Assembly: GCA_963677495.2 (NCBI GenBank)
Contig: CAXXOU010000001.1
Coordinates: 672,001-736,000 of the forward strand
From: Candidatus Cloacimonadales bacterium
GTDB taxonomy: Bacteria; Cloacimonadota; Cloacimonadia; Cloacimonadales; JAFGVF01
DNA length: 64,000 bases
Reading direction: 5' to 3'
Positions 33,447-60,557 of this stretch are shown here, piece after piece (the first letter of the stretch is position 1; every line of letters begins with the position of its first letter). The notes beneath the pieces were generated by a model that was not told the DNA's origin, made no database searches, and saw nothing but the letters and a program-made list of their open reading frames with translations. The translations under genes and the position numbers were made by a program.

Positions 33447-33597
33447 ATCCTAAAAGAATACAACTTGTTCGATTCCGCAATTCTGACACTCCTGCAGATA
33501 AACCTTGTTTTATCTAATGAACAATCTCGGTAATCCCCTTAAGAAATTATCATCATTTTAATTGACAGGATTAGTTTCTTTACATAAACAAAGTACT

Positions 33598-34677
33598 ATG
33601 AAATGTCCAATATGTAAGCAAGAACTTAAGTTGAAGCAAGAAGATGAGCATTCTATCTATGAATGTGAGCAATGTAAAGAGGTGTTTGTTAGTCTTACTT
33701 CCATTAAAAACAGCGGTAAAGATGTAGATATTCTAACTCAATTACGCAAAGATACTATGGAGCACGGACTACCGGGTAACATCTGCCCCAGTTGTTCAAA
33801 ACAGATGAAGGCAAAACCTGCTCCCGGGCTGCATTTGCAACCTATGGTTGAATATTGCGAGACATGTAATTTTATCTTTCTCAAGCGAGCGAGCTATGAT
33901 GCAATCCCTGAACGGGAGATTGTTGATGAATATGATAATCTCACTGAGGAGAGTGTGGAAGCTCTCAAACAAATATCCAAAGATTTAGATAAGAAGATTA
34001 AAGCACGAGGTATCGAAGACGAGAAGATGTACACACCATTCGAAAGAATAATGATGTATTTCGTCCCTAGATTGATAGGAGTCCCAAAGATTAAAGGTAT
34101 TCCACCTATCACAGCAATATTGTGTGGAATCGGGTTAATCTTCTCACTTATACCAAGCGGATTAATCTGGAAAGCATTTGAAAACCCAATGCTATCCGGC
34201 AGACACATGATGTTTGATTTTGCAGTTTCAGCAGGTTTTCTTGGAGTCTATATAGCATTTATCTTCGGAGCAAGACTTGAGGAAACTATCGGTTCTAAGA
34301 ACTTTCTGCTCTTCATTATCTCAACTTATGTCGTATCCTTTGTATTGAGATTATTATTCAACCCACAAGCTGCTGTTTCGGGAGGTATGCATGTCTCAAT
34401 TGCGATGGCTGTACTCTTCTCATTTCTATTCACTTTTGCCCGACTGAGAGGGATATTTTTCTTTAGAATATACACAATTCCTGTTTGGTTCTTTACTCTC
34501 ATAATTGCTATTTTTAGTGTAATTATGCAAACTCTAATGGGCTTTAGTCCAGCTAGTTTAGTTTTCTTCATTGTAGTCTTCGGTATGCCTACACTATTCC
34601 TTTTCGCTCTGGGAGGAAAGAAAAAGATATTAAAGGATGCCGGATTAGAAGAATTTATCAATATTGGTAGTTATTAA
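33598..34677 (+). CDS. Double zinc-ribbon plus rhomboid-like membrane protein
   Basis: Four CxxC pairs; FIFGARLEETIGSKNFLLF rhomboid-like segment; about six TM helices. Confidence 0.7.
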   Translation: MKCPICKQELKLKQEDEHSIYECEQCKEVFVSLTSIKNSGKDVDILTQLRKDTMEHGLPGNICPSCSKQMKAKPAPGLHLQPMVEYCETCNFIFLKRASYDAIPEREIVDEYDNLTEESVEALKQISKDLDKKIKARGIEDEKMYTPFERIMMYFVPRLIGVPKIKGIPPITAILCGIGLIFSLIPSGLIWKAFENPMLSGRHMMFDFAVSAGFLGVYIAFIFGARLEETIGSKNFLLFIISTYVVSFVLRLLFNPQAAVSGGMHVSIAMAVLFSFLFTFARLRGIFFFRIYTIPVWFFTLIIAIFSVIMQTLMGFSPASLVFFIVVFGMPTLFLFALGGKKKILKDAGLEEFINIGSY

Positions 34678-36457: not shown

Positions 36458-37003
36458 ATGAGAAAGATAATTATTACACTATTGAGCATTGTATTAGTTA
36501 CTATGCTTTTAGCATCAGAAAAGGACTTATTAAAACAGTTCAAGAAAGCAAAGATGAAGAAGCACAGTGGTGTACTCACAAAAATTGGTGATACTTGGCA
36601 CCTTGCGAAGGATAAGAAAAAGGGACCTGAGCTACATATTGACATTGAAGACTTAGAAGCATATGAAAGTCTGAAATGGGAGAATGGTACAGAGATAGAA
36701 CTTGTAGGTTTAACTCATAAAGGTAAGGTTCTTGTTACTAACATTTTCACCGAGACTGACACAATTCATATTCGTGACGCTAGAGGGATAAAACATACGA
36801 AAGAAACTCTTGCCGGTCAGTGGAAAGTAATTCCTAAGAAATGTATTAGCTGTGGGTTATGCGTAAAGCTATGTCCTGTTGACGCAGTTAAGATGGTCAA
36901 AGGTAAAGCTGTGATAGACCAATCAAAATGCATAAATTGCGGGAATTGTGCTCATGGTGGAATCAAAGGAAGAGGATGTCCTACAAGTGCGATTAAGAAA
37001 TAA
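36458..37003 (+). CDS. Exported protein with C-terminal 2x[4Fe-4S] domain
   Basis: Sec-type signal; CISCGLCVKLCP and CINCGNC-x9-CP. Confidence 0.85.
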   Translation: MRKIIITLLSIVLVTMLLASEKDLLKQFKKAKMKKHSGVLTKIGDTWHLAKDKKKGPELHIDIEDLEAYESLKWENGTEIELVGLTHKGKVLVTNIFTETDTIHIRDARGIKHTKETLAGQWKVIPKKCISCGLCVKLCPVDAVKMVKGKAVIDQSKCINCGNCAHGGIKGRGCPTSAIKK

Positions 37004-37979
37004 AGCCCTCTTACTTCTTCTTGCAGTCTTAGTGTTCACGGGTTGTTCTGACTCAATCTCTAAGATATCTGTTGCTGGAAACGTCCCTCCAAGCCCTGTT
37101 TCTAATGTATCGACTTTATTAATCAACGATACATATCTCCAGGTTATATGGGATAACCCAAAGGAAAGTAGCCTTGACCATCACCGGATATATGTATGTG
37201 AGAATGCGGATTCTCTTAATTTGATTTCAAACCTGTATACTGATGCTTTACCTGGCAATTCAGAACAATCAAAACAAGGTATTACTATAAGAAATCTGCA
37301 ACCGGCAACTGAGTATAAAGTTGGAATCATTGCTTCAAACAGATATGGAAACGGTAAAGGTTTACAAGATTCTATTGTAGTGAGAACAGCTAACTTCCAT
37401 ATTGAGGATACTGAAGCCCCGGAAGCACCTGCTCTAGTGAATATCACCGGACACCTGACAAAAGGTATTGAATCAGCAACTAATACTGAACTGCAGATTG
37501 AATTTACTCCAACAGGATCAGGAGAACTGATAACTCCTGAAATCAGATTTGCCCCAATACCTGAGTTTGCCAATTGGGATGCTGCATGGCCAATATCTAA
37601 CCCTGATCTTTTCATACCTGAGGCAATAACAGGTGAAAAAGGGATTATTAAGTTTAGCTTTATTGATGCATTCTGGCCACTTCCATTCCAGACATCAGAT
37701 TATGAATTCGTAATCTATGTCAAAAGCAAAGATGCGGAAGGTAACCTATCAGAAGAGAGCATTGCTCTTACAGGCGTGTTTAAAGTTGAAGTTCAGTCCG
37801 GATGTATCAAATGCTGGAACTGTTTAGATGTCTGCCCTGAAAATGCAATCTCAAAGTCCAGCTCTAAAGCTGTAATTGATCTAACTAAGTGCACCAGATG
37901 CGGTAACTGTGTTTTAGAATGTGCAGATGATGGTTCAGAAGTTATCTTCTTCAAAACAGAGGAAGTGGGAGGAATCTAA
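36987..37979 (+). CDS. Lipoprotein with FN3 and C-terminal 2x[4Fe-4S] domain
   Basis: Likely GTG start at 36987; lipobox-like FTGC; CIKCWNCLDVCP and CTRCGNCVLEC. Confidence 0.8.
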   Translation: MRLRNKALLLLLAVLVFTGCSDSISKISVAGNVPPSPVSNVSTLLINDTYLQVIWDNPKESSLDHHRIYVCENADSLNLISNLYTDALPGNSEQSKQGITIRNLQPATEYKVGIIASNRYGNGKGLQDSIVVRTANFHIEDTEAPEAPALVNITGHLTKGIESATNTELQIEFTPTGSGELITPEIRFAPIPEFANWDAAWPISNPDLFIPEAITGEKGIIKFSFIDAFWPLPFQTSDYEFVIYVKSKDAEGNLSEESIALTGVFKVEVQSGCIKCWNCLDVCPENAISKSSSKAVIDLTKCTRCGNCVLECADDGSEVIFFKTEEVGGI

Positions 37980-37981
37980 TA

Positions 37982-38230
37982 ATGAAGAAATACTTACTTA
38001 TCGTACTTATACTAATCACAATTCTTCTTGCTGTCACTGTAGAGGATAGTAGAAACCCACTCGTAATCAAAAACAGATGCGTTGGTTGTGGAGACTGTAT
38101 TGAAGTTTGCCCGGTTCAGGCAATTGAACTTGCTAATGGAAAAGCTTTAATAGACAATGAGACTTGCATAAACTGTGGCAAGTGCTTTAAAGCATGCACT
38201 TATAATGCTATCAGGAGTGCTCATGAATAA
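37982..38230 (+). CDS. Signal-peptide-bearing 2x[4Fe-4S] ferredoxin
   Basis: MKKYLLIVLILITILLA; CVGCGDCIEVCP and CINCGKCFKAC. Confidence 0.85.
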   Translation: MKKYLLIVLILITILLAVTVEDSRNPLVIKNRCVGCGDCIEVCPVQAIELANGKALIDNETCINCGKCFKACTYNAIRSAHE

Positions 38231-38465
38231 GATAATATTAATTCTTGTAGTGATTGTAATAGCTTTAGCAGTTGGTTGCGACAAAGTAACTAAACCTGAG
38301 TATAATGTTGAAAGCTCAGCTTGTAATGCATGTGGTGCTTGCATTGATATCTGCCCCAATGATGCAATAGAGTTTGATAAGAATGGGAAAGCTATTATTG
38401 ACCAAACAAAGTGCATTCAGTGTGCTAAATGTATACCTGTTTGCCCACAAGGAGCGATTTACTAA
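38223..38465 (+). CDS. Lipoprotein 2x[4Fe-4S] ferredoxin
   Basis: MNKIILILVVIVIALAVGC; CNACGACIDICP and CIQCAKCIPVCP. Confidence 0.85.
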   Translation: MNKIILILVVIVIALAVGCDKVTKPEYNVESSACNACGACIDICPNDAIEFDKNGKAIIDQTKCIQCAKCIPVCPQGAIY

Positions 38466-39673
38466 TGAAAATAATAATCTCAATCCTACTCCTTATCTCA
38501 CTTACAACTCTTGTTGCTTTTGATATAGATAGTTATAACGAACTTTCATTCGGAATGTATAGTATCGATGGTGAGAACTATTACAATTTACAGGAAGAGC
38601 TCTTCTCTGACGTTACTTTCAACGATAGTTGGACTGGTGGTATTGAACTTGATTTTGTGGCTTCTGAAGAGGGATTTAGCGAGATGAACTCCAACCTGTA
38701 TGATAGATTTAGAACATATCTTAACTGGAACTATAATCAAACCAATTTTTACACTAGCTTTAGTAACACTCTTTTTGATGCAGCTAAAACTAATGATATT
38801 GTTTTAGCCGGTCTTTACGATCCGATTGTTAAGCCTGTAACAAAGAATAACTTAGTTTTCAGTGCTTCTCAATCTTTGTGGAATCTCACATTAGAGGGTG
38901 CTATCAGATATAGAAATCTTAACTATGACTACAATGTAACAGAAGATGTTGAACAGGAAAACGATATGTTTACTGACCTAACTCTTACTTATGATGTTAC
39001 AGAAAGATTTGGTGTGTTCTCGACACTCTATTATAAAGATGATCTAAGCGATATTCCTAGTTCTGAAATTCCTGAAGACTATGAGGTTGAAGATCCCAAT
39101 AGCTACTTCGATGAGTTCACAGTTGGTGGAGGATTATTCTGGAAACAACGATTTGGAATGAATCATGGATTTAAAATATCAACTGCATATCTCAATCGGG
39201 ATGGAGAGACAATTCCAGAATATCTCAACCACTATTTTATTACTGATGCACGTTATAATTTCACTTTCACACCACAACTAAATGGTTTCCTTTCCTGCAT
39301 AAGCAGGGGATCTTTCAGTAAGGAAGAGAAGAAGTTTTATCGTGTTTCTAACCTTATAAGAGCACAGTTTAAGTACAGTCTTATGCCATTCGACTCCAGA
39401 GCATATATTGGAATCGGTGCTAAGTATAACCCTGAGAATGAGACTGACAGATATTACACTGAGCTTTCCTACCCCGTTTTCAACAGGATTACGATTAAAC
39501 TGGCTGATTACTACTCTCCGGAATATTATAACAATATTGTAACAGGAATTGAGTTTTCTTATGCTAAATATAACTCGTTCTATCTGGAGAATACTTTCTC
39601 TATGGTTGAGAATGATATTGTAGCATTAGACGACTACAACGAACTAAGGTTTGGAACAAGGATATCATTTTAA
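38465..39673 (+). CDS. Probable outer-membrane beta-barrel protein
   Basis: TAATG coupling, signal peptide, amphipathic aromatic strands, C-terminal Phe (GTRISF). Confidence 0.7.
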   Translation: MKIIISILLLISLTTLVAFDIDSYNELSFGMYSIDGENYYNLQEELFSDVTFNDSWTGGIELDFVASEEGFSEMNSNLYDRFRTYLNWNYNQTNFYTSFSNTLFDAAKTNDIVLAGLYDPIVKPVTKNNLVFSASQSLWNLTLEGAIRYRNLNYDYNVTEDVEQENDMFTDLTLTYDVTERFGVFSTLYYKDDLSDIPSSEIPEDYEVEDPNSYFDEFTVGGGLFWKQRFGMNHGFKISTAYLNRDGETIPEYLNHYFITDARYNFTFTPQLNGFLSCISRGSFSKEEKKFYRVSNLIRAQFKYSLMPFDSRAYIGIGAKYNPENETDRYYTELSYPVFNRITIKLADYYSPEYYNNIVTGIEFSYAKYNSFYLENTFSMVENDIVALDDYNELRFGTRISF

Positions 39674-40644
39674 TGTTTAAAACTTTGACAGAAGGGTTCC
39701 TACTAGGACTAACAACAGGTACAGTGTGCCTTGTTAGCTGCACACCAATATATCTACCGTTTATTATCTCTGAGAAACGTTCAATTGGAAAGAACTTTTT
39801 AAAGGTTATGGAGATTTCAATTGGTAGGTTCTTCTCATACCTATCTTTTGGTGCTCTTGCCGGCTGGCTTGGTGGTAATATCGAAACCATAGATAGAACA
39901 TTGTTCACCGGTATTGCTTATATCCTACTAACTGTATTTATGTTACTTTCTTTCTTTAGATTAACTAGAAAGGAGAAAAGCTGTCATATCCCTAAGTTTG
40001 TAAATGTAACTAAAAGTGCATTTTTACTAGGTATTTTCACCGGTATAAACTTCTGTCCATCATTCCTTATCGCATTGTCCAAAGCAGTTGATTTAGCAGG
40101 TGCTATGAGCGGGATTATGCTCTTTATGGGTTTCTTTTTTGGAACGTCACTGTTCCTAATTCCACTGGCATTCTCAGGATTCCTCTCTAAAATGAGCCTG
40201 ATGAAGAATATCGCTAGATACGCATCAGTTGCAGTTGCACTATATTTCCTCTATTCCGGTGTTGTGAAAATCAAAGATTTTGCCTTATCTACCCAAGCTA
40301 GAATCGTTGACCCGATCTCATCCGAGTATGATATTAAGCTTTTCACTTCTGATGTTGATAATCAATTCTATAAAGTGCTTTCTGATTCCCTGAATACTAT
40401 CAAATCAGAGCAGTTCACGTTAATAAAAACTAATGAGCTCAATCCTGACATGTTAGATAGCATTGAAGTTGGTACAATTATCCTTGTTGACCCGAAACTG
40501 GTAAATGATTCAAATATGGAAGCTATTCAAAACACAGACCATTATGTAATGAATCCTGGTTATGAACCCAAAGACGTTGTTCAGTTTCTACGAAACTATA
40601 GCATCAAGGTTGGCAAGAACCAATACCTTAAATGGGAGTTTTAA
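39673..40644 (+). CDS. DsbD_2/TauE-like six-TM protein with soluble C-terminal domain
   Basis: GTVCLVSCTP in TM1, GRFFSY, NFCP in TM4. Confidence 0.75.
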   Translation: MFKTLTEGFLLGLTTGTVCLVSCTPIYLPFIISEKRSIGKNFLKVMEISIGRFFSYLSFGALAGWLGGNIETIDRTLFTGIAYILLTVFMLLSFFRLTRKEKSCHIPKFVNVTKSAFLLGIFTGINFCPSFLIALSKAVDLAGAMSGIMLFMGFFFGTSLFLIPLAFSGFLSKMSLMKNIARYASVAVALYFLYSGVVKIKDFALSTQARIVDPISSEYDIKLFTSDVDNQFYKVLSDSLNTIKSEQFTLIKTNELNPDMLDSIEVGTIILVDPKLVNDSNMEAIQNTDHYVMNPGYEPKDVVQFLRNYSIKVGKNQYLKWEF

Positions 40645-40750: not shown

Positions 40751-41650
40751 ATGAGATTGATGAGTAAAATTGAGAGTCGAACACTATATTCGGATGGTTT
40801 GCTTCTATTAACCGCTGCAATCTGGGGATTTGCTTTTGTAGCTCAGAAAGTAGGAATGGAGAGCTGTGAGCCCTTCATGTTTAACGCAATCAGGTTTGCA
40901 TTAGGTGCTTTAGTTCTCATTCCTTTCCGCAAGAAGAAAATCAACTACCACACCCACTCGAAAGAGCTTAAATACTCAATCTTTACCGGATTAGCACTGT
41001 TTACTGCCGCCTCTCTTCAACAAATAGGAGTGAAGTTCACATCTGCAGGAAATGCAGGATTTATTACCGGGCTATATGTAGTATTTGTTCCTATAATCGG
41101 CATCTTCATAAAACAGAAAACTGGTTTAAGCGTATGGATAAGTTGTTTGTTCGCAATTTTAGGTATGTATTTTGTGAGTGTTTCCGGAAGTTTAAGTTTG
41201 ATGAAGGGTGACCTGTTCGTGCTTGCAAGTGCGGTTATTTGGGCTATTCACGTACAGCTTGTAGGCAAGATTGGTAGCAAACTTGGGGCAATACGTTTAG
41301 CAATGATTCAGTTCACTATCTGTTCGTTGTTAAGCTTCCTTACAGCAATGTTGTTCGAGACCAATAGCTTATCAGGTATATATCAGGCTACAGTTCCCAT
41401 TCTATATGGGGGATTGTTATCTGTAGGGATAGCTTATACATTGCAAATTGTAGCCCAAAAATCAGCTCCACCAAGCCATGCCGCTATCCTTCTTAGTATG
41501 GAATCAATGTTTGCAGTGCTGGGGGGAGTAGTAGTATTAAAAGAGAGTTTAACACTAAGATCAGGTATTGGTTTCAGCTTAATGCTAATCGCGATGTTCT
41601 TAGTACAAATAAAGCAATTTTTCGGATCAAACAAAACAAAGGAGAGATGA
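40751..41650 (+). CDS. DMT/EamA-family transporter
   Basis: IWGFAFVAQK, ten TM segments, ESMFAVLGG. Confidence 0.92.
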   Translation: MRLMSKIESRTLYSDGLLLLTAAIWGFAFVAQKVGMESCEPFMFNAIRFALGALVLIPFRKKKINYHTHSKELKYSIFTGLALFTAASLQQIGVKFTSAGNAGFITGLYVVFVPIIGIFIKQKTGLSVWISCLFAILGMYFVSVSGSLSLMKGDLFVLASAVIWAIHVQLVGKIGSKLGAIRLAMIQFTICSLLSFLTAMLFETNSLSGIYQATVPILYGGLLSVGIAYTLQIVAQKSAPPSHAAILLSMESMFAVLGGVVVLKESLTLRSGIGFSLMLIAMFLVQIKQFFGSNKTKER

Positions 41651-44600
41651 ATGAAACGGATCACATTACTTTTAGTAATTTCATTCATGTTACTTAATCT
41701 GTTTTCCACGCCAACAGGCGTAACAGCCACAATTCCTGATGACGGACAGGGATTTTGGTCTGGCAACAGAGCGGTAGAGGGACGACCTGAGCTTAATATT
41801 ACCAGCTCAGAGACAACAAGTATTAATCATGAAAGATGGCAGGAAGTCAGTAGAATCGAGTTTGATGAGTACTTAGAACCCGGTACATATCTCGGTATTG
41901 AATACAACCCATGGAACTTCCAATTCACAAAAGTATCTAATCAATCCGGTTTAAACAGTGTAGCAGAAAGTGCAATTGCACGAGCTCCGGAATGGTTGAA
42001 ATCTCAACTAAGATATACACTTTCCCAATTGAGTAACTCCAGACAAACTGTCTGGGGGAATACTATCTTAGATGCTGTTACTCCATACATTGATGAAGTA
42101 TGCTATGCAGTTGCATGGTCATCACCGGGATATCTTACAAGACAAGATATATATCCTGAGCTAATGCATGAGAATGCACGCTTGATGTATGATATAGCTG
42201 ATGAGTTGCAGTTTGTTTCTATTGTTGATCAAGGTAATGAAGCGTCCGGAGATTGGTATTCAACTACTCAGTACCGCAAAATGGATGAGTTTGGTATCGA
42301 AAGATGGGTTACAGTTGATAGAGATACATATTATATGTATGTTGTGCATCCCAAGATTACTGATGAAATCCCAAACTATATAGATCCTGACCACTCAGAG
42401 TCTAATTCAAGTCATGCTAATAACTTTGCCGAGCCACCGGTTGGACGTTTCTGGAGAGAATATCTTTATTATCATAATGATGATGGCTACCCTAAACTAA
42501 GAGACATGCTTGCAAACTGTCAGTATGTGATGGGTTCTCCGGTTTCTGAAGAGAATGCTATTATGCAAATAAACAGTTGGGTCTCTCAATCAATGGTTTT
42601 TACTTCAGAAGCTGAAAGACCACATCAACCGGTTAGAATCTATGACAAGCATATTGGTAGATGTGGAGAGCATCAGGATTTACGGGGTGCATGTGGAAGA
42701 ATAGCACTTATTCCGACTAAGGGAATCAATTGTATCTCAGGTGACCATGTATGGAATGAGTTCTGGGATGAGAGATGGATTCATTGGGATGGAGGAGGAA
42801 ACTCTTTAGATAATCCACTGCTATATGAGAACGGATGGGGAAGGCATTACGGTTCAATATTTGAACAACGCTCAGATGGTAAATTCATCCCTGTATCAGA
42901 CAAATACTCTGATGGATATGCAACTCTGAATATCTGGGCTATTGATGCTGAAAATAACCCAATAGACGGTGCAAGTGTATATTTAAGAGTTGAAGTTGAT
43001 GGTGATCCATACTTTGATAATGTAGGGGTTACTGATGATACAGGTCTTTGTACATTTATCGTTGGTGAAGATAGGAAGTATTATGCCAGAGTGAATAGTG
43101 TAATTCAAAATATGCCATCCTCCGGATACGACCTGCTTGTTGATAATGCAGCTAATAATGCTGTTTACGACTTTACCTTCCAGGCAACTCAAACGATGAT
43201 GGTTCCTGATGTTTCTTATACTCCGGTTCCAGATAGTACAGGCACACAATACAAGATAGAAACTCATTTCTTCTCAAACAGGTCACTTATTATTGGAAAC
43301 TCAGTATTTGATGATGCAAGTGGGGGTTTACACTACCAAGCTGATTATTCTAATGGAGGAGCTGATCTGTATATGACAGACAGTATTAACTTTGCTGCCG
43401 CTACTTCAGGCTTGCCTTTTGCAGCTTTTCATAGTTATCACGATATGGAAGATATATGGGTCCAATTCTTTACAAATACTGATGACTTCTGGTATTCCTT
43501 CTTCATGAATGGGCATAATGTAGTTAATCCTAAGCATGTCCAAGGTAGTTTTGTAATCTATACAACTGACCCAGAATATCAGACAGGAACAATGGATATC
43601 ACAGTGCTAAATGAAAATGAAGAGCCAATCCCCGGTGCTACAATTGTATTGGAACCTAATGATATTTCTTTTGAAGCAACAGAAAGCAATATATCAATAG
43701 ATGTTGCACAAGGTACCTATGATGTATATTGCTATCCGGGAGAGGATAATCCTAATTATCTACCTACAGCCTTTACCGGTGTTTATGTTTCTGCTGGAGA
43801 AATAGAAGTTCTAGAGTTTGTATTAGAAGAAAACGCGAATCCTGTAAGTAGATTAACTGCCGTGGATGAAGGTCAACAAGTTCATTTATCTTGGGAAGGA
43901 TGTTTCAATTCAACCCGTGACCTTGAATCAATCAGTCTTTTCAGGGGTGAAGTGAACTCCGAGCTTACAATAAATGATGGAAATCTTTATCTTGTTGCTG
44001 AAATGGAGCAAGGAGATTCCTATATCGATACTGATTGGAGTCAGCTTCCAAGCAATGTCTATAGATGGATGATTGTAGCAAACTATACAGGTGGAGAGCA
44101 CTCGATACCTGTTTATTCAAACATCATTGAAAAAGATATGACTGTTGCTGTTGACTTCAATATTACTACAAATACAGATATAATTCCTGATGGTGCAATT
44201 ATCACTCTTACAAATTATGATGATGTAAGTAGTCATCAATATGAAGGGATATATGAGAATCAAAGCTGTATTTTACCAAATGTATGGTTGGGAGAATACT
44301 ATCTGACTGTTACCTTCGCTGACTTTGAGTTTTATGATGATGATTTGCTAATTACAGCAGACGAGACTATAGATGTTGAATTGATTCAAAACTTAACAGT
44401 TCCAGGCAATTGTAGTGTTTCGGAAGGAGTTCTAAGTTGGTATCCATGCAACTTTGCTACAGCTTATAAAGTCTATCTTGATGGCACTCTACAAACTGAA
44501 ACAACAGAAATAGATTACACATTCGCAGGACTATCAGCAGATGTTAACTACTTAGCTGGGGTTAAAGCTGTATATGAGACAGGTGAGTCAGAGCTTTATG

Positions 44601-46900
44601 AAATAGGATTTGTTAATGGTAGCTCAGTAGGCTTTGGTAAAATAGCTAACTTCAGCTTTAATGGTGATTCAGTTGAATCAATCAACAATATCAATATTAA
44701 TGAGTATGGAACAATAGAGTACTCTGATGATGCAGTATCCGGACAATCAGTTGTGCTTGATGGTTTCAGTAGTTACTTGGAGTCAGATAACTCACCAATT
44801 CTTAACAGTGCTGCAACACATTATACTGTTAAGATTTGGGTTAAACCTCGAATTCCAGTAACTAACTGGACTGGTATTGTTGGTAAACCGGGTAGAAATT
44901 ATAACATCTGGACTCATCCTAATGGCTATATACACCATAGATTCCACACTGATACAGGTACAAATAATGGAATAGGAAACACAAACGATGGTGTTATGAA
45001 TTGGGGAGAATGGAATCATATTGTTATTACTAATGACGGTACAGTTGGTAAGACCTATGTCAATGGTGTGTTAGAGCAATCAGGTACATTCTCAGGTGAT
45101 TTAATTGAAGATGACACTCCGCTCATCTTTGGTCGTCATCTTGATGGCAACAGTATGAATTGCATGCTGGATGGAAAACTTGATGAATGTGTTATTTGGG
45201 ATAGAGCTCTTTCTGAGAGTGAAGTAGCTATGGTTTACCTTGAAGAGATGATTCCTGAAGGTACTATAACCGGTAGTATCACTGATGCAAATAATACTCC
45301 TATAGAAGGTGCAATAATTAGTGTTGGCTACAGAGAAGTAGTAAGTAGCTCAAATGGTGGATACTTAATCGCAGTTCAGCCTGCTGATTATGAAATGCAT
45401 GTAACTGCATCCGGATATAGCGAGTATGTACAGAATATTTCTGTTACTGCTAATGATGCACAGAGTATAAATATTTCCCTTACTGAAGCCTTGGAAACGC
45501 CGATGGGTTTAGCTGTGTTCGATAATGAGCTATCATGGTGTCCTGTTGGACTCGATAACGATAGAGATTTTACAGAGTATAAAGTTTATCTGGAAGGCTC
45601 TGAAGTAGCAACCACACAAGATACGAGCTACACTTTCACGAACTTAAACCCGGACCAAACCTACATGGCTTCTGTTGAAGCTTCGTTTGATACAGGTATA
45701 TCACAACAAGCGGAAATTGGTTTTAAAGATGGATCATCACTTAGTTATATGAACACTTTAAACCTGCCTCTAGATGGAGATTATTCAGAAGAGCACGGTA
45801 ATACTCCAACCTCAGTTAATGGTGACCTGACTTTTGTAGCTGATGAAGCTTTTGATAACTATCTTGAATTTGATGGTGTTGGTGACTACCTTGAGCTCTT
45901 AACTACAGACTTGTTAGGATTCTACCAATCAAGTTTCACAGCCAGTGCTTGGGTAAAATTAGCAAGTGACGATACAAATGATAAAGCAATCTTTGGTACT
46001 AATTTCTCCGGAGCAACTAATGGCGGTCTACATTTGATGGTTAGAACTGGACGAGTTAGTATGCGATTCTATGGAAATGACACAAACCAGAATCATGTGC
46101 TTATGCCTGGAGTTTGGTATCATGTTACATATAGATATGATATTGATGCTCAGAAACAAGAGATGTTTGTGAACGGTGAGCTCATAAAGAGCGGAGAAAA
46201 CAAGACTCCTTTCGATAATGCCGGTACCCCTGTATTCATAGGGCAAGCAGATGGTTCTCGCTTCTTCGAAGGTGGCATGAAACATATAAATATCTGGAAC
46301 AGAGCTTTGAGTAGTGCCGAACTCCTGAATAGTTATAACTCAACTGCTCCTGATTATGGATATATCTCAGGTGTTGTAACTTATGCCGGTGATGGAGAGC
46401 CAATGGCTGGTGTTACTGTGACAGTAAATGACGTTCAAGCAACTACAGATGCTGAAGGTTATTATATGATTCCCGTTACAGAGGGGACTTGGGATGTGTC
46501 GTTCAAGCCGGGACTACATACAGAGTTCATCGTAGAAAACGTTATTGTTACTGTCGGTGAAACGTCCCAAGTTGATTACAGTTATGATTTCACTGGTAAT
46601 AATGATGCGGAGCAACTGTCAATTGTAACAGCGTTAAATGCTGTATATCCAAATCCATTTAACCCAACAACGACAATCAGCTTCTCATTAAAGTCTACGG
46701 ACAATGTAAAACTTACTGTGTATGATATCAAAGGTAGGAAAGTAGTTGATTTGGTTGATGCTACTTTAGGAGCCGGTGGTCACACTGTAAGTTGGAATGG
46801 AGAAGATAATAACGGAAAGAGTACTGCATCAGGTATTTATTTAATTAAGATGTCTACAAATAGTTATGAGTCTACACGCAAAGCAGTGTTGATGAAATAA
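41651..46900 (+). CDS. Secreted transglutaminase-like (PNGase-like core) protein with FN3, two LamG and CTD
   Basis: GRCGEH, DHVWNE, WIHWD; W.H LamG motifs; YPNPFNP...KAVLMK. Confidence 0.82.
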   Translation: MKRITLLLVISFMLLNLFSTPTGVTATIPDDGQGFWSGNRAVEGRPELNITSSETTSINHERWQEVSRIEFDEYLEPGTYLGIEYNPWNFQFTKVSNQSGLNSVAESAIARAPEWLKSQLRYTLSQLSNSRQTVWGNTILDAVTPYIDEVCYAVAWSSPGYLTRQDIYPELMHENARLMYDIADELQFVSIVDQGNEASGDWYSTTQYRKMDEFGIERWVTVDRDTYYMYVVHPKITDEIPNYIDPDHSESNSSHANNFAEPPVGRFWREYLYYHNDDGYPKLRDMLANCQYVMGSPVSEENAIMQINSWVSQSMVFTSEAERPHQPVRIYDKHIGRCGEHQDLRGACGRIALIPTKGINCISGDHVWNEFWDERWIHWDGGGNSLDNPLLYENGWGRHYGSIFEQRSDGKFIPVSDKYSDGYATLNIWAIDAENNPIDGASVYLRVEVDGDPYFDNVGVTDDTGLCTFIVGEDRKYYARVNSVIQNMPSSGYDLLVDNAANNAVYDFTFQATQTMMVPDVSYTPVPDSTGTQYKIETHFFSNRSLIIGNSVFDDASGGLHYQADYSNGGADLYMTDSINFAAATSGLPFAAFHSYHDMEDIWVQFFTNTDDFWYSFFMNGHNVVNPKHVQGSFVIYTTDPEYQTGTMDITVLNENEEPIPGATIVLEPNDISFEATESNISIDVAQGTYDVYCYPGEDNPNYLPTAFTGVYVSAGEIEVLEFVLEENANPVSRLTAVDEGQQVHLSWEGCFNSTRDLESISLFRGEVNSELTINDGNLYLVAEMEQGDSYIDTDWSQLPSNVYRWMIVANYTGGEHSIPVYSNIIEKDMTVAVDFNITTNTDIIPDGAIITLTNYDDVSSHQYEGIYENQSCILPNVWLGEYYLTVTFADFEFYDDDLLITADETIDVELIQNLTVPGNCSVSEGVLSWYPCNFATAYKVYLDGTLQTETTEIDYTFAGLSADVNYLAGVKAVYETGESELYEIGFVNGSSVGFGKIANFSFNGDSVESINNININEYGTIEYSDDAVSGQSVVLDGFSSYLESDNSPILNSAATHYTVKIWVKPRIPVTNWTGIVGKPGRNYNIWTHPNGYIHHRFHTDTGTNNGIGNTNDGVMNWGEWNHIVITNDGTVGKTYVNGVLEQSGTFSGDLIEDDTPLIFGRHLDGNSMNCMLDGKLDECVIWDRALSESEVAMVYLEEMIPEGTITGSITDANNTPIEGAIISVGYREVVSSSNGGYLIAVQPADYEMHVTASGYSEYVQNISVTANDAQSINISLTEALETPMGLAVFDNELSWCPVGLDNDRDFTEYKVYLEGSEVATTQDTSYTFTNLNPDQTYMASVEASFDTGISQQAEIGFKDGSSLSYMNTLNLPLDGDYSEEHGNTPTSVNGDLTFVADEAFDNYLEFDGVGDYLELLTTDLLGFYQSSFTASAWVKLASDDTNDKAIFGTNFSGATNGGLHLMVRTGRVSMRFYGNDTNQNHVLMPGVWYHVTYRYDIDAQKQEMFVNGELIKSGENKTPFDNAGTPVFIGQADGSRFFEGGMKHINIWNRALSSAELLNSYNSTAPDYGYISGVVTYAGDGEPMAGVTVTVNDVQATTDAEGYYMIPVTEGTWDVSFKPGLHTEFIVENVIVTVGETSQVDYSYDFTGNNDAEQLSIVTALNAVYPNPFNPTTTISFSLKSTDNVKLTVYDIKGRKVVDLVDATLGAGGHTVSWNGEDNNGKSTASGIYLIKMSTNSYESTRKAVLMK

Positions 46901-47980: not shown

Positions 47981-49045
47981 TTAGTCTATCTCAATAAGTT
48001 TATACTCTTTTGATCCTAGACCGATTTCATGCCCATAATCAACCTGATGGTTACCTGATGTATGTGAATGCTTAGCAAACGCATCGCTGAGCTTAGTTTG
48101 CTCATTTACAAGGTCAAGACAGGCTTTATCGATAGCTACCATATCCAATGAAGAAAGAACACCAATATCATCTGTGAAAGCAGGAGGTGCTGAACCAATA
48201 CAATCGCAATGTGCTGATATGTTGTTTAAGAAGTTAATATATACCATATTCGTGTTTTGTGAAATAGCATGAGCATATTCAGTTACACGTTCCTGGAATA
48301 CATTTGTATCAGTTGAGCCCCATGGCACACCGAACACCTGTTCAGGGCAGATTCCTATACAAGCAGCACAACCAATACATTTTGACTCATCTATTTTTAC
48401 AGGTTCTATTGTAATCGCTTTACCAGGGCAGTTATCAACACATAGCCCACATTGAATGCAACGAGAATCACTATATTGAGGAATAGCAGATGCATGCATT
48501 GCCATCTTGCCGGGAATACTACCAAGTCCCATGCCAACATTCTTAATTGCTCCTCCAAAACCTTGAGCAACATGTCCTTTGAAGTGAGAAATAACAATAA
48601 TTGTATCATAACTAAGCAGTTCTTTACCGGTACTAACTTGTTTAAAATGCTTTCCATCATATTCAAGTAGTGCTTCTCCCCCATCATCAACAATATCAAT
48701 AGGCGCAAAATCGAATCCATGCTCTTTCGCAAGTGTTATATGTGAATCAGTGTAACGTCGAGGACTCACATAAAGAACATTAGTCTCAATTAGAGTTGCT
48801 TCTAACTCTGTTACAAGCTCTTTGATTAGACTTGGTTGAATGTAATTCTTATTACCTTTTTCACCAAAGTGGATCTTGATTGCTACTTTACCTTGAACTT
48901 TCGAACTTACTTTCTCATATACTGCTTTTAAACCCTGTGGGCTTATATCTCTTGTTAAATATACCATTTTCTCTCCGTTACTCCTTGATTTTGCACACAG
49001 AACCACTAGTAGTAATAACACAACTATCGTTATGAACATCTTCAT
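47981..49045 (-). CDS. DUF362-domain Fe-S protein with N-terminal signal peptide
   Basis: VAIKIHFGEKGN, SHFKGH, GFGGAIKN, two CxxCxxCxxxCP, CDC, DMVAID. Confidence 0.88.
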   Translation of the reverse strand: MKMFITIVVLLLLVVLCAKSRSNGEKMVYLTRDISPQGLKAVYEKVSSKVQGKVAIKIHFGEKGNKNYIQPSLIKELVTELEATLIETNVLYVSPRRYTDSHITLAKEHGFDFAPIDIVDDGGEALLEYDGKHFKQVSTGKELLSYDTIIVISHFKGHVAQGFGGAIKNVGMGLGSIPGKMAMHASAIPQYSDSRCIQCGLCVDNCPGKAITIEPVKIDESKCIGCAACIGICPEQVFGVPWGSTDTNVFQERVTEYAHAISQNTNMVYINFLNNISAHCDCIGSAPPAFTDDIGVLSSLDMVAIDKACLDLVNEQTKLSDAFAKHSHTSGNHQVDYGHEIGLGSKEYKLIEID

Positions 49046-60162: not shown

Positions 60163-60557
60163 GTACCTTCTGAATGGTTGCAGACCTTCAGAATGGTGCA
60201 CTTCGAAGGGAAAGCACCTCACAATTGTAACGAAACCCGCTTCGAATGACGGAATTAGCGAATCACACTATCGATGCAATTCACTTCTTCCTACTTCATC
60301 AAGAGCATTTTATTCTCTCATATTCTGAAGCAGTCACCAGTACGACCAACGGGAGTTTGGGGAAATGCGTACTTCGAAGCAAAGCGATTTATTGTCTCAA
60401 CACCTGTACCTTTGGAATGGTTGTAAACCTTGCAAATGGTGCACTTCGAAGGGAAAGCACCTCGCAATTGTAACGAAACCCGCTTCGAATGACGGAATTA
60501 GCGAATCACACTATCATTGCGATTCACTTCTTCCTACTTCATCAAGAGCATTTTATT
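60163..60557. repeat. 152-bp direct duplication (60163-60314 and 60406-60557)
   Basis: 141/152 identical by hand count; each begins with a family A REP and ends with the last 8 codons of 60534..62582. Confidence 0.92.

Follow-up and report, generated by a model that had tools for sequence, protein, structure and literature searches.

A candidate haem-free porin-ferredoxin electron conduit encoded by a conserved six-gene operon in Cloacimonadota

Results

Six coupled genes encode exported ferredoxins, a predicted barrel, and a membrane protein

The window, a 64,000-nucleotide stretch of a Candidatus Cloacimonadales genome, carries at 36458 to 40644 of the forward strand six co-oriented, translationally coupled genes, referred to here as g1 to g6 (Table 1). 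A first-pass annotation, made by reading the same sequence, had reported six tightly coupled genes, and the coordinates, overlaps, and TAATG junctions were all recovered. g1 and g2 overlap by 17 nt and g3 and g4 by 8 nt, g2 and g3 meet at TAATAATG, and TAATG forms the junction at both g4/g5 and g5/g6. No terminator-like site was found within the operon; the three that were found all lie at 41042 to 41412. The probable start of g2 is the GTG at 36987, with the SD-like sequence GGAAGAGGA ten bases upstream; the longest open reading frame starts at 36948, and the domain matches of g2 are numbered on this longer frame. Because the arrangement recurs across genera and in two phyla (see below), it is beyond chance, and the observation of a six-gene operon of exported ferredoxins and a barrel is confirmed.

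Table 1. Genes of the operon, with positions in the window
Gene	Position	Strand	Product
g1	36458-37003	+	181 aa, exported ferredoxin-domain protein
g2	36987-37979	+	330 aa, ferredoxin-domain lipoprotein with fn3
g3	37982-38230	+	82 aa, small 2x[4Fe-4S] ferredoxin, Sec-type N-terminus
g4	38223-38465	+	80 aa, lipoprotein 2x[4Fe-4S] ferredoxin
g5	38465-39673	+	402 aa, predicted outer-membrane beta-barrel with signal peptide
g6	39673-40644	+	323 aa, inner-membrane CcdA/DsbD_2-like protein

Ferredoxin modules and export signals

The Pfam family Fer4 was matched above its cut-off in all of g1 to g4 (E values of 1.3e-12, 2e-8, 4.3e-15, and 1.6e-14, respectively), and each protein holds eight cluster cysteines, in agreement with the two ferredoxin cysteine motifs first noticed in each. 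The reported lack of a twin-arginine motif also held, as Arg-Arg is absent from the first 35 residues of all four. The N-termini and their cleavage sites were judged by eye: g1, g3, and g5 run from Lys/Arg through a hydrophobic stretch to Ala and the cleavage site, a Sec-type pattern kept in their orthologues, and g2 and g4 carry the lipobox-like motifs FTGC and AVGC that had been pointed out before. In g1, the Sec-type N-terminus (MRK, a hydrophobic stretch, and LLA/SE) precedes a domain of ∼100 aa without a family and a C-terminal 2x[4Fe-4S] module (Fer4 match at residues 123 to 166), the second motif of which is the long-spacer variant CxxCxxCx9CP; the protein has eight cysteines in total and no Arg-Arg. 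g1-like genes (176 to 195 aa, with the same N-terminal pattern) are present in 13/20 related loci. g2 consists of the lipobox VFTGC/SDS, an fn3 domain (E value of 4.7e-9), a further beta-rich region, and the C-terminal 2x[4Fe-4S] module. Its relatives, of 321 to 1053 aa, contain a lipobox, Fer4, several (1 to 6) fn3 domains, and Fer4 again. In sister genera, the position of g2 is occupied by a ferredoxin of 178 to 179 aa composed of a signal peptide, Fer4x2, and the type IX tail Por_Secre_tail, which scored 28.9 and 39.1 bits (cut-off, 27).

The small ferredoxin g3, present in 20/20 related loci, begins with MKK, 17 hydrophobic residues, and ED, and its second motif ends in CT(Y) and not CP; the protein would be either soluble in the periplasm or N-terminally anchored and facing it. 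g4 has the lipobox LAVGC/DK. All eight cysteines of g3, and the lipobox Cys19 and all eight cluster cysteines of g4, are invariant in 21/21 aligned orthologues. The cluster cysteines of both are retained at identities of about 32 to 86%, and the alignments indicate that the cluster-binding residues are under selection. Several independent signs, namely, the invariant lipobox, the fusions of the same modules to type IX tails and fn3 domains, and the predicted fit into the barrel described below, place the ferredoxin domains outside the cytoplasm.

A predicted barrel that may enclose g4

The product of g5 begins with a signal peptide (LVA/FD) and ends in Phe (...RISF). Its AlphaFold2 model comprises a signal helix and 20 strands (pLDDT, 91.7; pTM, 0.82), which bears out the initial description of a barrel-like protein with a terminal Phe. 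No family was matched in Pfam or NCBIfam, and homologues at an E value of ≤1e-3 amount to 48 cluster representatives among 1.84 billion. In structure, g5 comes closest to the barrels of TonB-dependent transporters (Z scores of 17.4 to 13, headed by BtuB with an rmsd of 4.8 over 336 aligned residues; Foldseek TMq of up to 0.56), and LptD was matched with a Z score of 12.1. A plug domain and a TonB-box region are absent from the model. Omp85/BamA is encoded in the genome. g5 is thus predicted to be an outer-membrane barrel of no described family.

The complex prediction that had been suggested as a check was run with g5 (residues 20 to 402), g4 (residues 20 to 80), and two 4Fe-4S clusters. The ipSAE values were 0.79, 0.85, and 0.81 (median, 0.81), and the best of three controls reached 0.00. 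The mark applied was reached by 116/157 solved complexes and 2/215 mismatched pairs, counts that are a rough calibration here, as own alignments were used and ligands were included. The runs shared at least 85% of contacts, with a partner pLDDT of at least 84. Comparison with solved chains found no solved homologue of the g5-g4 chains, and the predicted fit therefore does not reproduce a known structure. Mapped onto the g5 model, the g4 contacts fall on 16/20 strands in an i, i+2 pattern. On the g5 side, they involve R263 and R299, which are nearly invariant, and on the g4 side, the family-specific motifs PEYN (residues 25 to 28) and C-terminal AIY (78 to 80). g4 is accordingly predicted to be lodged within the barrel lumen; this insertion, like any cluster-to-cluster distance, is read from contact lists only.

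A CcdA-like membrane protein

g6 matches DsbD_2 (PF13386; E value of 2.9e-19, residues 9 to 193) and, by Foldseek, the CcdA NMR structure 5vkv (probability, 1.00; 21% identity over 205 columns; E value of 0.011); its source label is "sulfite exporter TauE/SafE family." It has six helices and four invariant cysteine columns among 34 aligned homologues: C19xxxC23xP in helix 1, C128-P129 in helix 4, and, in the basic loop that precedes helix 4, C104. The six-helix protein with CxxxC and CP cysteines had thus been recognized correctly. AlphaFold2 assigned a pLDDT of about 90 to the C-terminal domain and 50 to 80 to the membrane part. The C-terminal alpha/beta domain (about residues 210 to 323, or about 115 aa) is cysteine-free, and no clear structural relative of it was found. 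Counted by eye, Lys/Arg residues number 13 in loops 1, 3, and 5 and 3 in the N-terminus plus loops 2 and 4. The topology conforms to the positive-inside rule, and the C-terminal domain is predicted to face the periplasm.

Distribution and genomic context

The barrel gene occurs in 87/232 genomes of the phylum. Across the related loci, the small ferredoxin pair is present in 20/20, g5 in 19/20, and g6, following g5, in 17/20; a NapH-like gene lies directly upstream of the cluster in 4/20. Among 66 loci anchored on g6 and having enough flank, 54 carry two or more small ferredoxins upstream, and in 50 an open reading frame of 330 to 560 aa abuts g6, with 36/50 matching the g5 HMM and 35/50 ending in Phe. 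MAGs labelled Fibrobacterota show the same order together with a membrane polyferredoxin of ∼510 aa (Fer4_5 x2), so that the genes co-occur well beyond the window. The ferredoxins and barrel persist without any g6 homologue in two genomes, which are 99% and 95% complete and in which positive controls worked; g6 therefore cannot be an obligatory electron entry point. In one of these (locus L034), genes for Fur and FeoB take the place of g6 directly downstream of the barrel gene, and in one genus (5 loci) an HMA-domain heavy-metal P-type ATPase lies directly upstream of the cluster.

Tat genes were also sought, as the first-pass annotation had proposed. TatC and TatA had no match in the 99.46%-complete genome of the window, where controls matched in 11/14 cases; TatC exceeded its cut-off in 8/232 genomes of the phylum, and 85/87 barrel-positive genomes lack it. 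In the genome of the window, the cytochrome c assembly family PF01578 had no match and 0/3979 open reading frames contained two or more CxxCH motifs; none of the six operon products contains one. The genome encodes signal peptidase II (LspA), an unlinked NapH-like Fer4_5 membrane polyferredoxin, and a protein (C2:348312-349094) composed of a signal peptide, Fer4x2, CarboxypepD_reg, and Por_Secre_tail, and it yielded 139 matches to a query that ends in a Por_Secre_tail domain. None of the sequencing runs recorded as RNA contained the stretch, a result that speaks neither way.

Discussion

A proposed haem-free electron path and its alternatives

We consider it somewhat probable that the operon specifies a haem-free porin-ferredoxin conduit, an iron-sulfur electron path across the cell envelope with clusters loaded outside the cytoplasm. 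Electrons would enter at the inner membrane via g6, the periplasmic domain of which may serve for docking, and/or via the unlinked NapH-like polyferredoxin. They would then pass to g3 and to g4 inside the barrel, an arrangement reminiscent of a porin with a redox protein as its plug, and onward to surface modules: g1, the fn3-bearing g2, and a ferredoxin secreted by the type IX route, whose gene lies outside the operon. The chain would end at a partner or acceptor outside the cell, or electrons may run the opposite way. In the large lipoproteins, several fn3 domains lie between the two Fer4 modules, and electrons could not tunnel directly over such a distance without a back-folding or swinging of the protein. 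Because the organism lacks a Tat system, the apoproteins would cross the inner membrane unfolded and gain their [4Fe-4S] clusters in the periplasm or outside. We know of no established precedent for Sec export of a [4Fe-4S] protein and of no periplasmic Fe-S assembly machinery, and such loading would be credible only where conditions are strictly anoxic and both iron and sulfide are abundant. The initial proposal of a heme-free envelope electron chain thus stands in its structural premises, from which we infer electron transfer itself, occupied clusters, and a role for g6. A literature search found no description of such an exported ferredoxin-barrel system, and the operon of this cytochrome-free, Tat-free anaerobe seems to specify a previously undescribed haem-free route for electrons through the envelope.

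It is possible, although unlikely, that the proteins instead serve iron or Fe-S trafficking, in line with the metal-capture system that the first-pass annotation had offered as its alternative, with exported ferredoxin folds capturing Fe, S, or preformed Fe-S from sulfidic surroundings. Cargo would move from the surface through the barrel to the periplasm and, via g6 or FeoB, across the inner membrane, or in the reverse direction. The closest structural matches of g5 are barrels of TonB-dependent metal and siderophore transporters, but g5 has no plug domain or TonB-box region, and large barrels in general share this similarity. The neighbouring Fur and FeoB genes in L034 and the P-type ATPase genes in one genus are a hint of metal traffic, as is the TauE/SafE label of g6, and DsbD_2 belongs to a transporter superfamily that includes metal transporters. 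However, each kind of metal-gene neighbour is found in a single lineage only, among kin and not independently. Electron transfer is indicated by the NapH-like polyferredoxins that adjoin the cluster in two phyla. Several positionally conserved paralogues with eight invariant cysteines also suit a fixed-station relay better than a chelator, and dicluster ferredoxin folds bury their clusters and are not known to act as cluster donors.

Envelope redox maintenance is less probable still. In this case, a CcdA-like g6 would export reducing power, and the ferredoxins would draw on it to keep envelope thiols reduced or to reduce a soluble substrate in the periplasm (for example, polysulfide, trace oxygen, or a metalloid). 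g6 is homologous to CcdA/DsbD_2 proteins and retains the cysteines of helices 1 and 4. As the genome has no cytochrome c to mature, g6 must have another client, and the operon ferredoxins are the obvious one. This explanation nevertheless leaves unaccounted for an outer-membrane barrel of the operon's own, with a ferredoxin predicted inside it, as well as ferredoxin modules whose type IX tails or extended fn3 stalks are suited to reaching the surface; in addition, the operon encodes no thioredoxin-fold partner, the C-terminal domain of g6 has no cysteines, and two genomes keep the other parts without g6. Very improbable, and already disfavoured, is the idea that uncleaved N-terminal anchors leave the ferredoxin domains in the cytoplasm, with the barrel and membrane protein unrelated to them. 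The 17 hydrophobic residues of g3 make a long stretch for a signal peptide, many lysines follow the hydrophobic stretch of g1, and cleavage in g1 to g4 was read by eye. In all four, however, positive charges precede the hydrophobic stretch, and the invariant Cys19 of g4, the type IX and fn3 fusions with no additional membrane segments, the coupling to the barrel across two phyla, and the g4-in-barrel model, which passes where controls score 0.00, all speak against such anchors.

Comparison with known systems

The candidate conduit shares parts with several known systems. As in type IX cargo of the FCB group, Por_Secre_tail is found on ferredoxins of the genome of the window and of sister genera, although g1 to g4 of the window lack it; no description of a cofactor-bearing ferredoxin as type IX cargo was found in the literature searched. 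g6 resembles CcdA/DsbD in its DsbD_2 domain, its six helices, the helix-1 and helix-4 cysteines followed by Pro, and the match to 5vkv. It differs in having four invariant cysteines (CxxxCxP, the loop Cys, and CP) rather than two and an extra cysteine-free periplasmic alpha/beta domain, with no thioredoxin-like partner and no cytochrome c to serve.

NapG/NapH of periplasmic nitrate reductase and the HybA- and DmsB-type subunits are Tat-exported ferredoxins with a membrane Fe-S partner. The 4Fe-4S dicluster modules of the operon likewise appear to lie outside the cytoplasm, and a NapH-like Fer4_5 polyferredoxin adjoins the cluster in some lineages and is unlinked in the genome of the window. 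In contrast to those proteins, g1 to g4 have no twin-arginine motif and the genome no TatC or TatA; lipoprotein and type IX sorting signals are used, the operon has no catalytic subunit, and an outer-membrane barrel belongs to the set.

Like TonB-dependent transporters and LptD-LptE, in which LptE is a lipoprotein lodged in its barrel, g5 is a large barrel predicted to hold a globular domain. The 20-stranded g5 lacks a TonB box and a covalently attached plug, the putative plug being a separate 61-residue Fe-S lipoprotein, and there is no sequence similarity to plug-in-barrel proteins. In porin-cytochrome conduits (Shewanella MtrCAB, PioAB/MtoAB, and Geobacter Pcc), a barrel and exported redox proteins are encoded in an operon, and a redox protein sits in the barrel. 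The operon described here differs from these in that it lacks haem, in a genome without a cytochrome c assembly gene; the cofactor would be [4Fe-4S] on a ferredoxin fold, with loading that fits no known periplasmic pathway; and g5, with 20 predicted strands versus the 26 of MtrB, matches no Pfam family, neither it nor g4 being related in sequence to any solved chain. As in the porin-cytochrome conduits, the operon pairs a barrel gene with exported redox proteins, one of them predicted to lie inside the barrel, and supplies lipoprotein or surface redox partners.

Organization of the gene cluster

The six genes g1 to g6 follow one another on the forward strand with almost no intergenic DNA, as the first-pass annotation had described them. 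The overlap of g1 and g2 is 17 nt if g2 starts at the GTG at 36987, which has GGAAGAGGA ten bases upstream; the longest reading frame for g2 begins at 36948, within g1. The g2/g3 junction is TAATAATG, g3 and g4 overlap by 8 nt, and the g4/g5 and g5/g6 junctions are both TAATG. No terminator-like sites were found inside the block. Promoter-like sites are not in excess (21 versus 24.5 ± 4.4 in shuffled sequences). The operon is preceded by an O-methyltransferase gene (PF01596) and followed by a gene for an EamA transporter. A horizontally acquired island was rejected on the basis of GC content, which is flat (0.36 to 0.39). The DNA of the stretch is present in four sequencing runs of one study, with no RNA run listed.

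Two other proteins encoded nearby were recorded. One, with an N-terminal zinc ribbon (PF13453), matches a rhomboid-like membrane domain weakly and under the cut-off (E 0.002); the other, encoded just 3′ of the operon, ends in a type IX-type sorting tail. Searched with a query whose C-terminal half is such a tail by Pfam, the genome gave 139 matches, mostly to that half; several fall in the window, as listed in the table.

Coordinates of the six genes and of other features named in the text
Feature	Sequence	Position	Strand	Length (aa)
g1, ferredoxin-domain protein	window	36458-37003	+	181
g2, ferredoxin-domain protein	window	36987-37979	+	330
g3, ferredoxin-domain protein	window	37982-38230	+	82
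g4, ferredoxin-domain protein	window	38223-38465	+	80
g5, predicted barrel	window	38465-39673	+	402
g6, CcdA/DsbD_2-like protein	window	39673-40644	+	323
Zinc ribbon protein	window	33562-34677	+	371
Protein with type IX-type tail	window	41651-46900	+	1749
Tail-query match	window	2304-2519		
Tail-query match	window	55579-55866	-	
Tail-query match	window	60555-60848	-	
DUF362 and Fer4 dicluster protein	window	47981-49045	-	354
Unlinked ferredoxin with type IX-type tail	own genome, contig C2 (locus L041)	348312-349094 (1492-2274)		260
Fur and FeoB	locus L034 (genome G164)	7210-9931		
P-type ATPase with HMA domain	locus L022	1526-3988		~820
Lipoprotein with three Fer4 motifs	locus L120	8025-9137		318-370
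Lipoprotein with three Fer4 motifs	locus L122	11150-12106	-	318-370

Ferredoxin domains and predicted export of g1 to g4

The two ferredoxin cysteine motifs noted in the first reading in each of g1 to g4 were recovered by Fer4 and Fer4_7 or dicluster Pfam models above their cut-offs. Each protein has eight cluster cysteines, the second motif of g1 being of the long-spacer form, and Pfam places an additional fn3 domain in g2. All eight cysteines are invariant in both the g3 and the g4 families, as aligned from the window and 20 related loci, which were selected among the 87 genomes that have a g5 match. The four proteins thus have the sequence features of 2x[4Fe-4S] bacterial-type ferredoxin domains and are predicted to bind clusters. 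No NCBIfam ferredoxin model matches any of them above its curated cut-off, and so none is the orthologue of a named ferredoxin. The possibility that they are Cys-rich peptide precursors for a radical-SAM system was dropped because the cluster contains no such enzyme. Elsewhere in the window, a DUF362 protein with a Fer4 dicluster and an N-terminal K-hydrophobic segment (MKMFITIVVLLLLVVLC...) is another Fe-S protein of this genome without Tat, and it may be membrane-anchored or exported.

By eye, the N termini of g1 to g4 read as M, K/R, and then a hydrophobic run, followed in g1 and g3 by A-x cleavage-type sites and in g2 and g4 by the lipoboxes expected from the first reading (FTGC followed by S and AVGC followed by D, respectively). 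No RR occurs within the first 35 residues of any g1 to g6 product. The lipobox cysteine of g4 is invariant together with its eight cluster cysteines (21/21 sequences), g3 orthologues keep the N-terminal pattern along with their eight cysteines, and g2-like proteins of the related loci carry lipoboxes too. The genome encodes signal peptidase II (PF01252, E 2.8e-38) and Omp85 proteins. With a lipobox, an invariant cysteine (in g4), and signal peptidase II available, g2 and g4 have the sequence characteristics of bacterial lipoproteins.

The gene at the g2 position varies among lineages. In one genus (L022 to L026) and in the loci L027 and L034, it is an ORF of 178 to 191 aa; the two analyzed with Pfam, those of L022 and L034, each encode a signal peptide, two Fer4 domains, and a Por_Secre_tail, which is the sorting domain for type IX secretion (28.9 and 39.1 bits, respectively; cut-off, 27). 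Other lineages have lipoproteins of 598 to 1053 aa consisting of a lipobox, a Fer4 dicluster, several fn3 domains, and a Fer4 domain, with no further membrane segment; both the fn3 arrays and the lipid anchors are characteristic of locations outside the cytoplasm. By Pfam, Por_Secre_tail is absent from g1 to g4 of the window. It is present in a ferredoxin encoded apart from the operon in the same genome, together with a signal peptide, two Fer4 domains, and CarboxypepD_reg. The gene after the latter encodes a 267-aa signal-bearing protein whose family was not recognized.

If the N termini were uncleaved anchors, the ferredoxin domains would remain in the cytoplasm. Such an arrangement is very unlikely in view of five lines of evidence: the conserved lipobox cysteine of g4, the Por_Secre_tail domains at the g2 position, the fn3 lipoproteins, the unlinked type IX ferredoxin, and the presence of signal peptidase II (LspA) and Omp85. 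At the level of sequence, the argument for extracytoplasmic ferredoxin domains is strong.

Absence of Tat and of cytochromes c

The genome (3.41 Mb, 4 contigs, 99.46% complete) has no match to TatC or TatA, the outcome of the tatABC check that the first-pass annotation had called for; the same searches have matches in 11 of 14 control genomes. Across the phylum to which the organism belongs, Cloacimonadota, TatC scores above the cut-off in 8/232 genomes (3/151 among those of good quality); among the 87 that carry the barrel gene, only G014 and G169 have a match. The ferredoxins of the operon therefore have no known route for export in a folded, cluster-loaded state. The genome also has no match to the cytochrome c assembly protein (PF01578), none of its 3979 ORFs of at least 80 aa contains two or more CxxCH motifs, and g1 to g6 contain no CxxCH at all.

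The barrel and its predicted complex with g4

No Pfam-A or NCBIfam family matches g5 at an E value of ≤0.01, and when 1.84 billion cluster representatives were searched exhaustively with phmmer, only 48 reached an E value of ≤1e-3. These representatives were aligned except for five fragments and one 832-aa protein, leaving 42. AlphaFold2 predicts a signal helix and 20 strands (pLDDT 91.7, pTM 0.82), in which long loops alternate with 2- to 4-residue turns in the style of outer membrane proteins; the C-terminal residue is Phe. The proposed barrel is thus upheld as a structure prediction. Searches with the model returned only generic outer membrane barrels in Foldseek (TMq, ≤0.56), and in VIA-align the barrels of TonB-dependent transporters ranked at the top (BtuB, plug excluded: Z 17.4, rmsd 4.8 Å, 336 residues aligned), with LptD at Z 12.1. 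The g5 profile found nothing among all PDB sequences beyond chitoporin at an E value of 2.2, and the Atlas returned only generic porin-like clusters, with recognition below the usual mark.

The complex was modeled from g5 (residues 20 to 402) and mature g4 (residues 20 to 80), each with its own alignment, together with two 4Fe-4S clusters. For the suggested association of barrel and ferredoxin, the ipSAE values were 0.79, 0.85, and 0.81 (median, 0.81) versus 0.00 for the best of three controls. The ipSAE mark is passed by 116/157 solved complexes and 2/215 mismatched pairs, counts that apply only roughly here because the model was built with custom alignments and with ligands. At least 85% of contacts are common to the runs, and the partner pLDDT is at least 84. 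Since no like complex has been solved, the pass does not reflect a structure known to the predictor. The model therefore supports binding of g4 to g5 without demonstrating it.

When the contact list is mapped onto the predicted strands, g4 touches the long loops and 16 of the 20 strands, where contacted residues mostly follow an i, i+2 spacing; a 61-residue protein touching 16 strands would have to lie within the lumen or mouth. Among the residues in contact are R263 and R299 of g5, both nearly invariant, and, on g4, PEYN (25 to 28) and the C-terminal AIY (78 to 80), both conserved and outside the generic ferredoxin fold. The 14-residue linker after the lipid-anchored cysteine also contacts the barrel wall in the model. 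The strand mapping, and a linker running up the lumen, are suggestions drawn from contacts rather than coordinates. The export signals, the barrel, its predicted fit with g4, and the conservation described below are findings at the level of sequences and models.

The inner membrane protein g6

The DsbD_2 family (PF13386) matches residues 9 to 193 of g6 at an E value of 2.9e-19; NCBIfam has no matching model of any kind for g5 or g6. Foldseek aligned the g6 model with the NMR structure of CcdA (5vkv; probability 1.00, 21% identity, E 0.011). The CxxxC and CP cysteines pointed out in the first reading proved to be C19/C23 (CxxxCxP, helix 1) and C128-P129 (helix 4), invariant in all 34 homologues aligned from 120 listed of 222 matches, and a fourth invariant cysteine, C104, lies in the basic loop that precedes helix 4. 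Sequence and model together place g6 in the DsbD/CcdA superfamily; its four-cysteine pattern is atypical, and it has an extra domain. Lys and Arg residues are concentrated in loops 1, 3, and 5, which would place both termini, and hence the C-terminal domain, in the periplasm. This alpha/beta domain (pLDDT of about 90) has no cysteine and an invariant D238-S239. Its fold gave nothing at an E value of ≤0.001 in Foldseek, no usable match in the Atlas, and weak VIA-align similarity (Z of about 7.9) to halves of LacI-type regulators.

A role for g6 in cytochrome c biogenesis, the process after which its Pfam family is called, was rejected because the genome has neither the assembly protein nor multiheme ORFs, leaving g6 no cytochrome to serve. 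None of the six products is a thioredoxin-fold CxxC partner or carries such a domain on the periplasmic side. The protein may be an electron relay, a source of reductant that keeps the 32 cysteines reduced, or a carrier of iron, sulfur, or a cluster. Two genomes, G164 (99% complete) and G053 (95%), have two small ferredoxins and the barrel with no g6 homologue anywhere; in the same search, the controls G113 and G107 matched at 1e-144 or better. Judged by gene content, g6 is not indispensable to the ferredoxin-barrel module.

Conservation and gene neighborhoods

The barrel gene occurs in 87/232 genomes of the phylum, 57/151 of those of good quality, and 25/66 genera. The genes also co-occur elsewhere, as the proposal of a functional unit required: the small ferredoxin pair is present in all 20 fetched loci, g5 in 19 (the contig of the twentieth ends there), g6 in 17, and a g1-like gene in 13. 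When the g6 alignment was run against species-representative genomes, it yielded 79 loci, of which 67 are labeled Cloacimonadota or a synonym and 6 Fibrobacterota, Chitinivibrionales, or Chitinispirillaceae; the others are Delongbacteria, Coatesbacteria, Armatimonadota, or unlabeled. In the separate listing of g6 relatives, Candidatus Zophobacter franzmannii is among the source names. Synteny was counted at the 66 g6 loci with at least 2.3 kb of upstream sequence. At least two small ferredoxins lie within 2.6 kb upstream in 54 of these, and an ORF of 330 to 560 aa abuts g6 in 50, of which 36 match the g5 HMM and 35 end in Phe. Of the 16 loci lacking an abutting ORF by this heuristic, at least two (L117 and L118) do have one on inspection.

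Eleven of the 12 g6 loci not labeled Cloacimonadota were inspected. Gene order is retained in the Fibrobacterota-type loci. Genes for an exported ferredoxin, a g3-like protein, and a lipoprotein ferredoxin come first, then one for a signal-bearing protein of ~430 to 467 aa (with a weak g5 HMM match in three, E 2e-7 to 1e-6), and then a g6-like gene. In 4/8 such loci there is also a membrane protein of ~510 aa that has two Fer4_5 domains as well as further diclusters. Beside the cluster in two of them (L120 and L122) are additional lipoproteins with three Fer4 motifs, which widens the exported-ferredoxin repertoire of this locus type. A shorter NapH-like Fer4_5 protein is encoded directly upstream of the cluster in 4/20 Cloacimonadota loci and is unlinked to it in the window's genome, where the neighbors (a decarboxylase sodium-pump operon, a LexA-like gene, and GlmS) are uninformative. 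This family occurs in 187/232 phylum genomes versus 87/232 for the barrel and is so nearly ubiquitous that its presence alone does not discriminate.

Possible functions

The operon somewhat more probably than otherwise encodes a heme-free electron path of ferredoxin stations across the envelope, the clusters being acquired after Sec export. The inner membrane station would be g6, the NapH-like polyferredoxin, or both; g3 would serve in the periplasm, g4 within g5, and g1, g2, and the type IX ferredoxin at the surface. We infer the electron flow, its direction, its partner, and the loading of clusters. Iron or Fe-S traffic through the same proteins, akin to the metal capture raised in the first-pass annotation, is the main rival and an unlikely one. 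It would suit the transporter-like barrel, the Fur (PF01475) and FeoB genes that stand 3′ of the barrel gene in place of g6 in L034, and the P-type (E1-E2) ATPase with an HMA domain whose gene immediately precedes the cluster, in the same orientation, in five genomes belonging to a single genus (L022 and, in the same place, L023 to L026). These metal-related neighbors are restricted to particular lineages, however, and could equally supply Fe2+ for cluster assembly in the periplasm; the ATPase could be a metal exporter feeding such assembly or be adjacent by chance. Envelope redox maintenance, which is still less probable, would leave the barrel and the surface-sorting signals without explanation.

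Extending the electron path to its full scope, we tentatively propose, as a possibility that may well fail, that Cloacimonadota, as well as some Fibrobacterota, assemble [4Fe-4S] ferredoxins extracytoplasmically, export them by Sec, lipoprotein, and type IX routes, and line them up between the inner membrane and the surface, by way of the 20-stranded barrel, as a low-potential, heme-free wire, with g6 and its four invariant membrane cysteines supplying reductant or clusters. Through it, fermenting or syntrophic cells could directly donate electrons to partners or minerals, or accept them. According to two sources (10.1101/2021.10.08.463351 and PMC8542988), Cloacimonadota abound in anaerobic digesters and anoxic waters and are thought to live by fermentation and syntrophy. 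An outward route at ferredoxin potential would therefore matter for electron transfer between species, for methane production, and for corrosion, and extracytoplasmic Fe-S assembly would become directly testable through six small genes.

Comparison with known systems

Full-text searches, which did not extend to subscription journals, found no description of exported ferredoxins with a barrel. A term search of 10.1101/2021.10.08.463351 found no occurrence of 4Fe-4S, TauE, twin-arginine, periplasm, or iron-sulfur, and among 12 of the 13 matching passages of PMC8542988, none concerns the gene cluster. The cassette is real, conserved, and, within this literature, undescribed; its function is a prediction. 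According to published abstracts, known outer membrane electron conduits all rely on multiheme cytochromes, and exported Fe-S proteins are regarded as Tat dependent, cluster insertion being a cytoplasmic step. Both ideas are challenged by a conserved cassette, in a phylum free of Tat and cytochromes, whose ferredoxins are predicted to lie in the periplasm, within a barrel, and at the surface. If the proposal is true, the rule that Fe-S proteins need Tat would be overturned and extracellular electron transfer would have a second chemical solution.

The systems compared share only parts of this arrangement. Tat-dependent exported Fe-S proteins differ in that the operon products have no twin-arginine signal and the genome no translocase. 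NapGH-type systems have ferredoxin modules and a NapH-like partner in common with the operon, which lacks Tat signals. Type IX secretion cargo carries a sorting tail that g1 to g4 lack, whereas the g2-position ferredoxins of L022 and L034 and the unlinked ferredoxin of the same genome possess it. The likeness to porin-cytochrome conduits (MtrCAB/Pcc) is architectural, a barrel gene standing beside genes for redox proteins, one of them predicted to be enclosed. The operon differs in having no heme and no cytochrome c assembly protein, and g5 has no sequence homology to a described barrel family and a different strand number. By analogy of architecture, the operon would work like a porin-cytochrome conduit but is not a member of that family; what appears to be new, from sequences and models, is a redox protein in an outer membrane barrel, an arrangement of a known kind, with Fe-S clusters replacing heme and no homology between the two.
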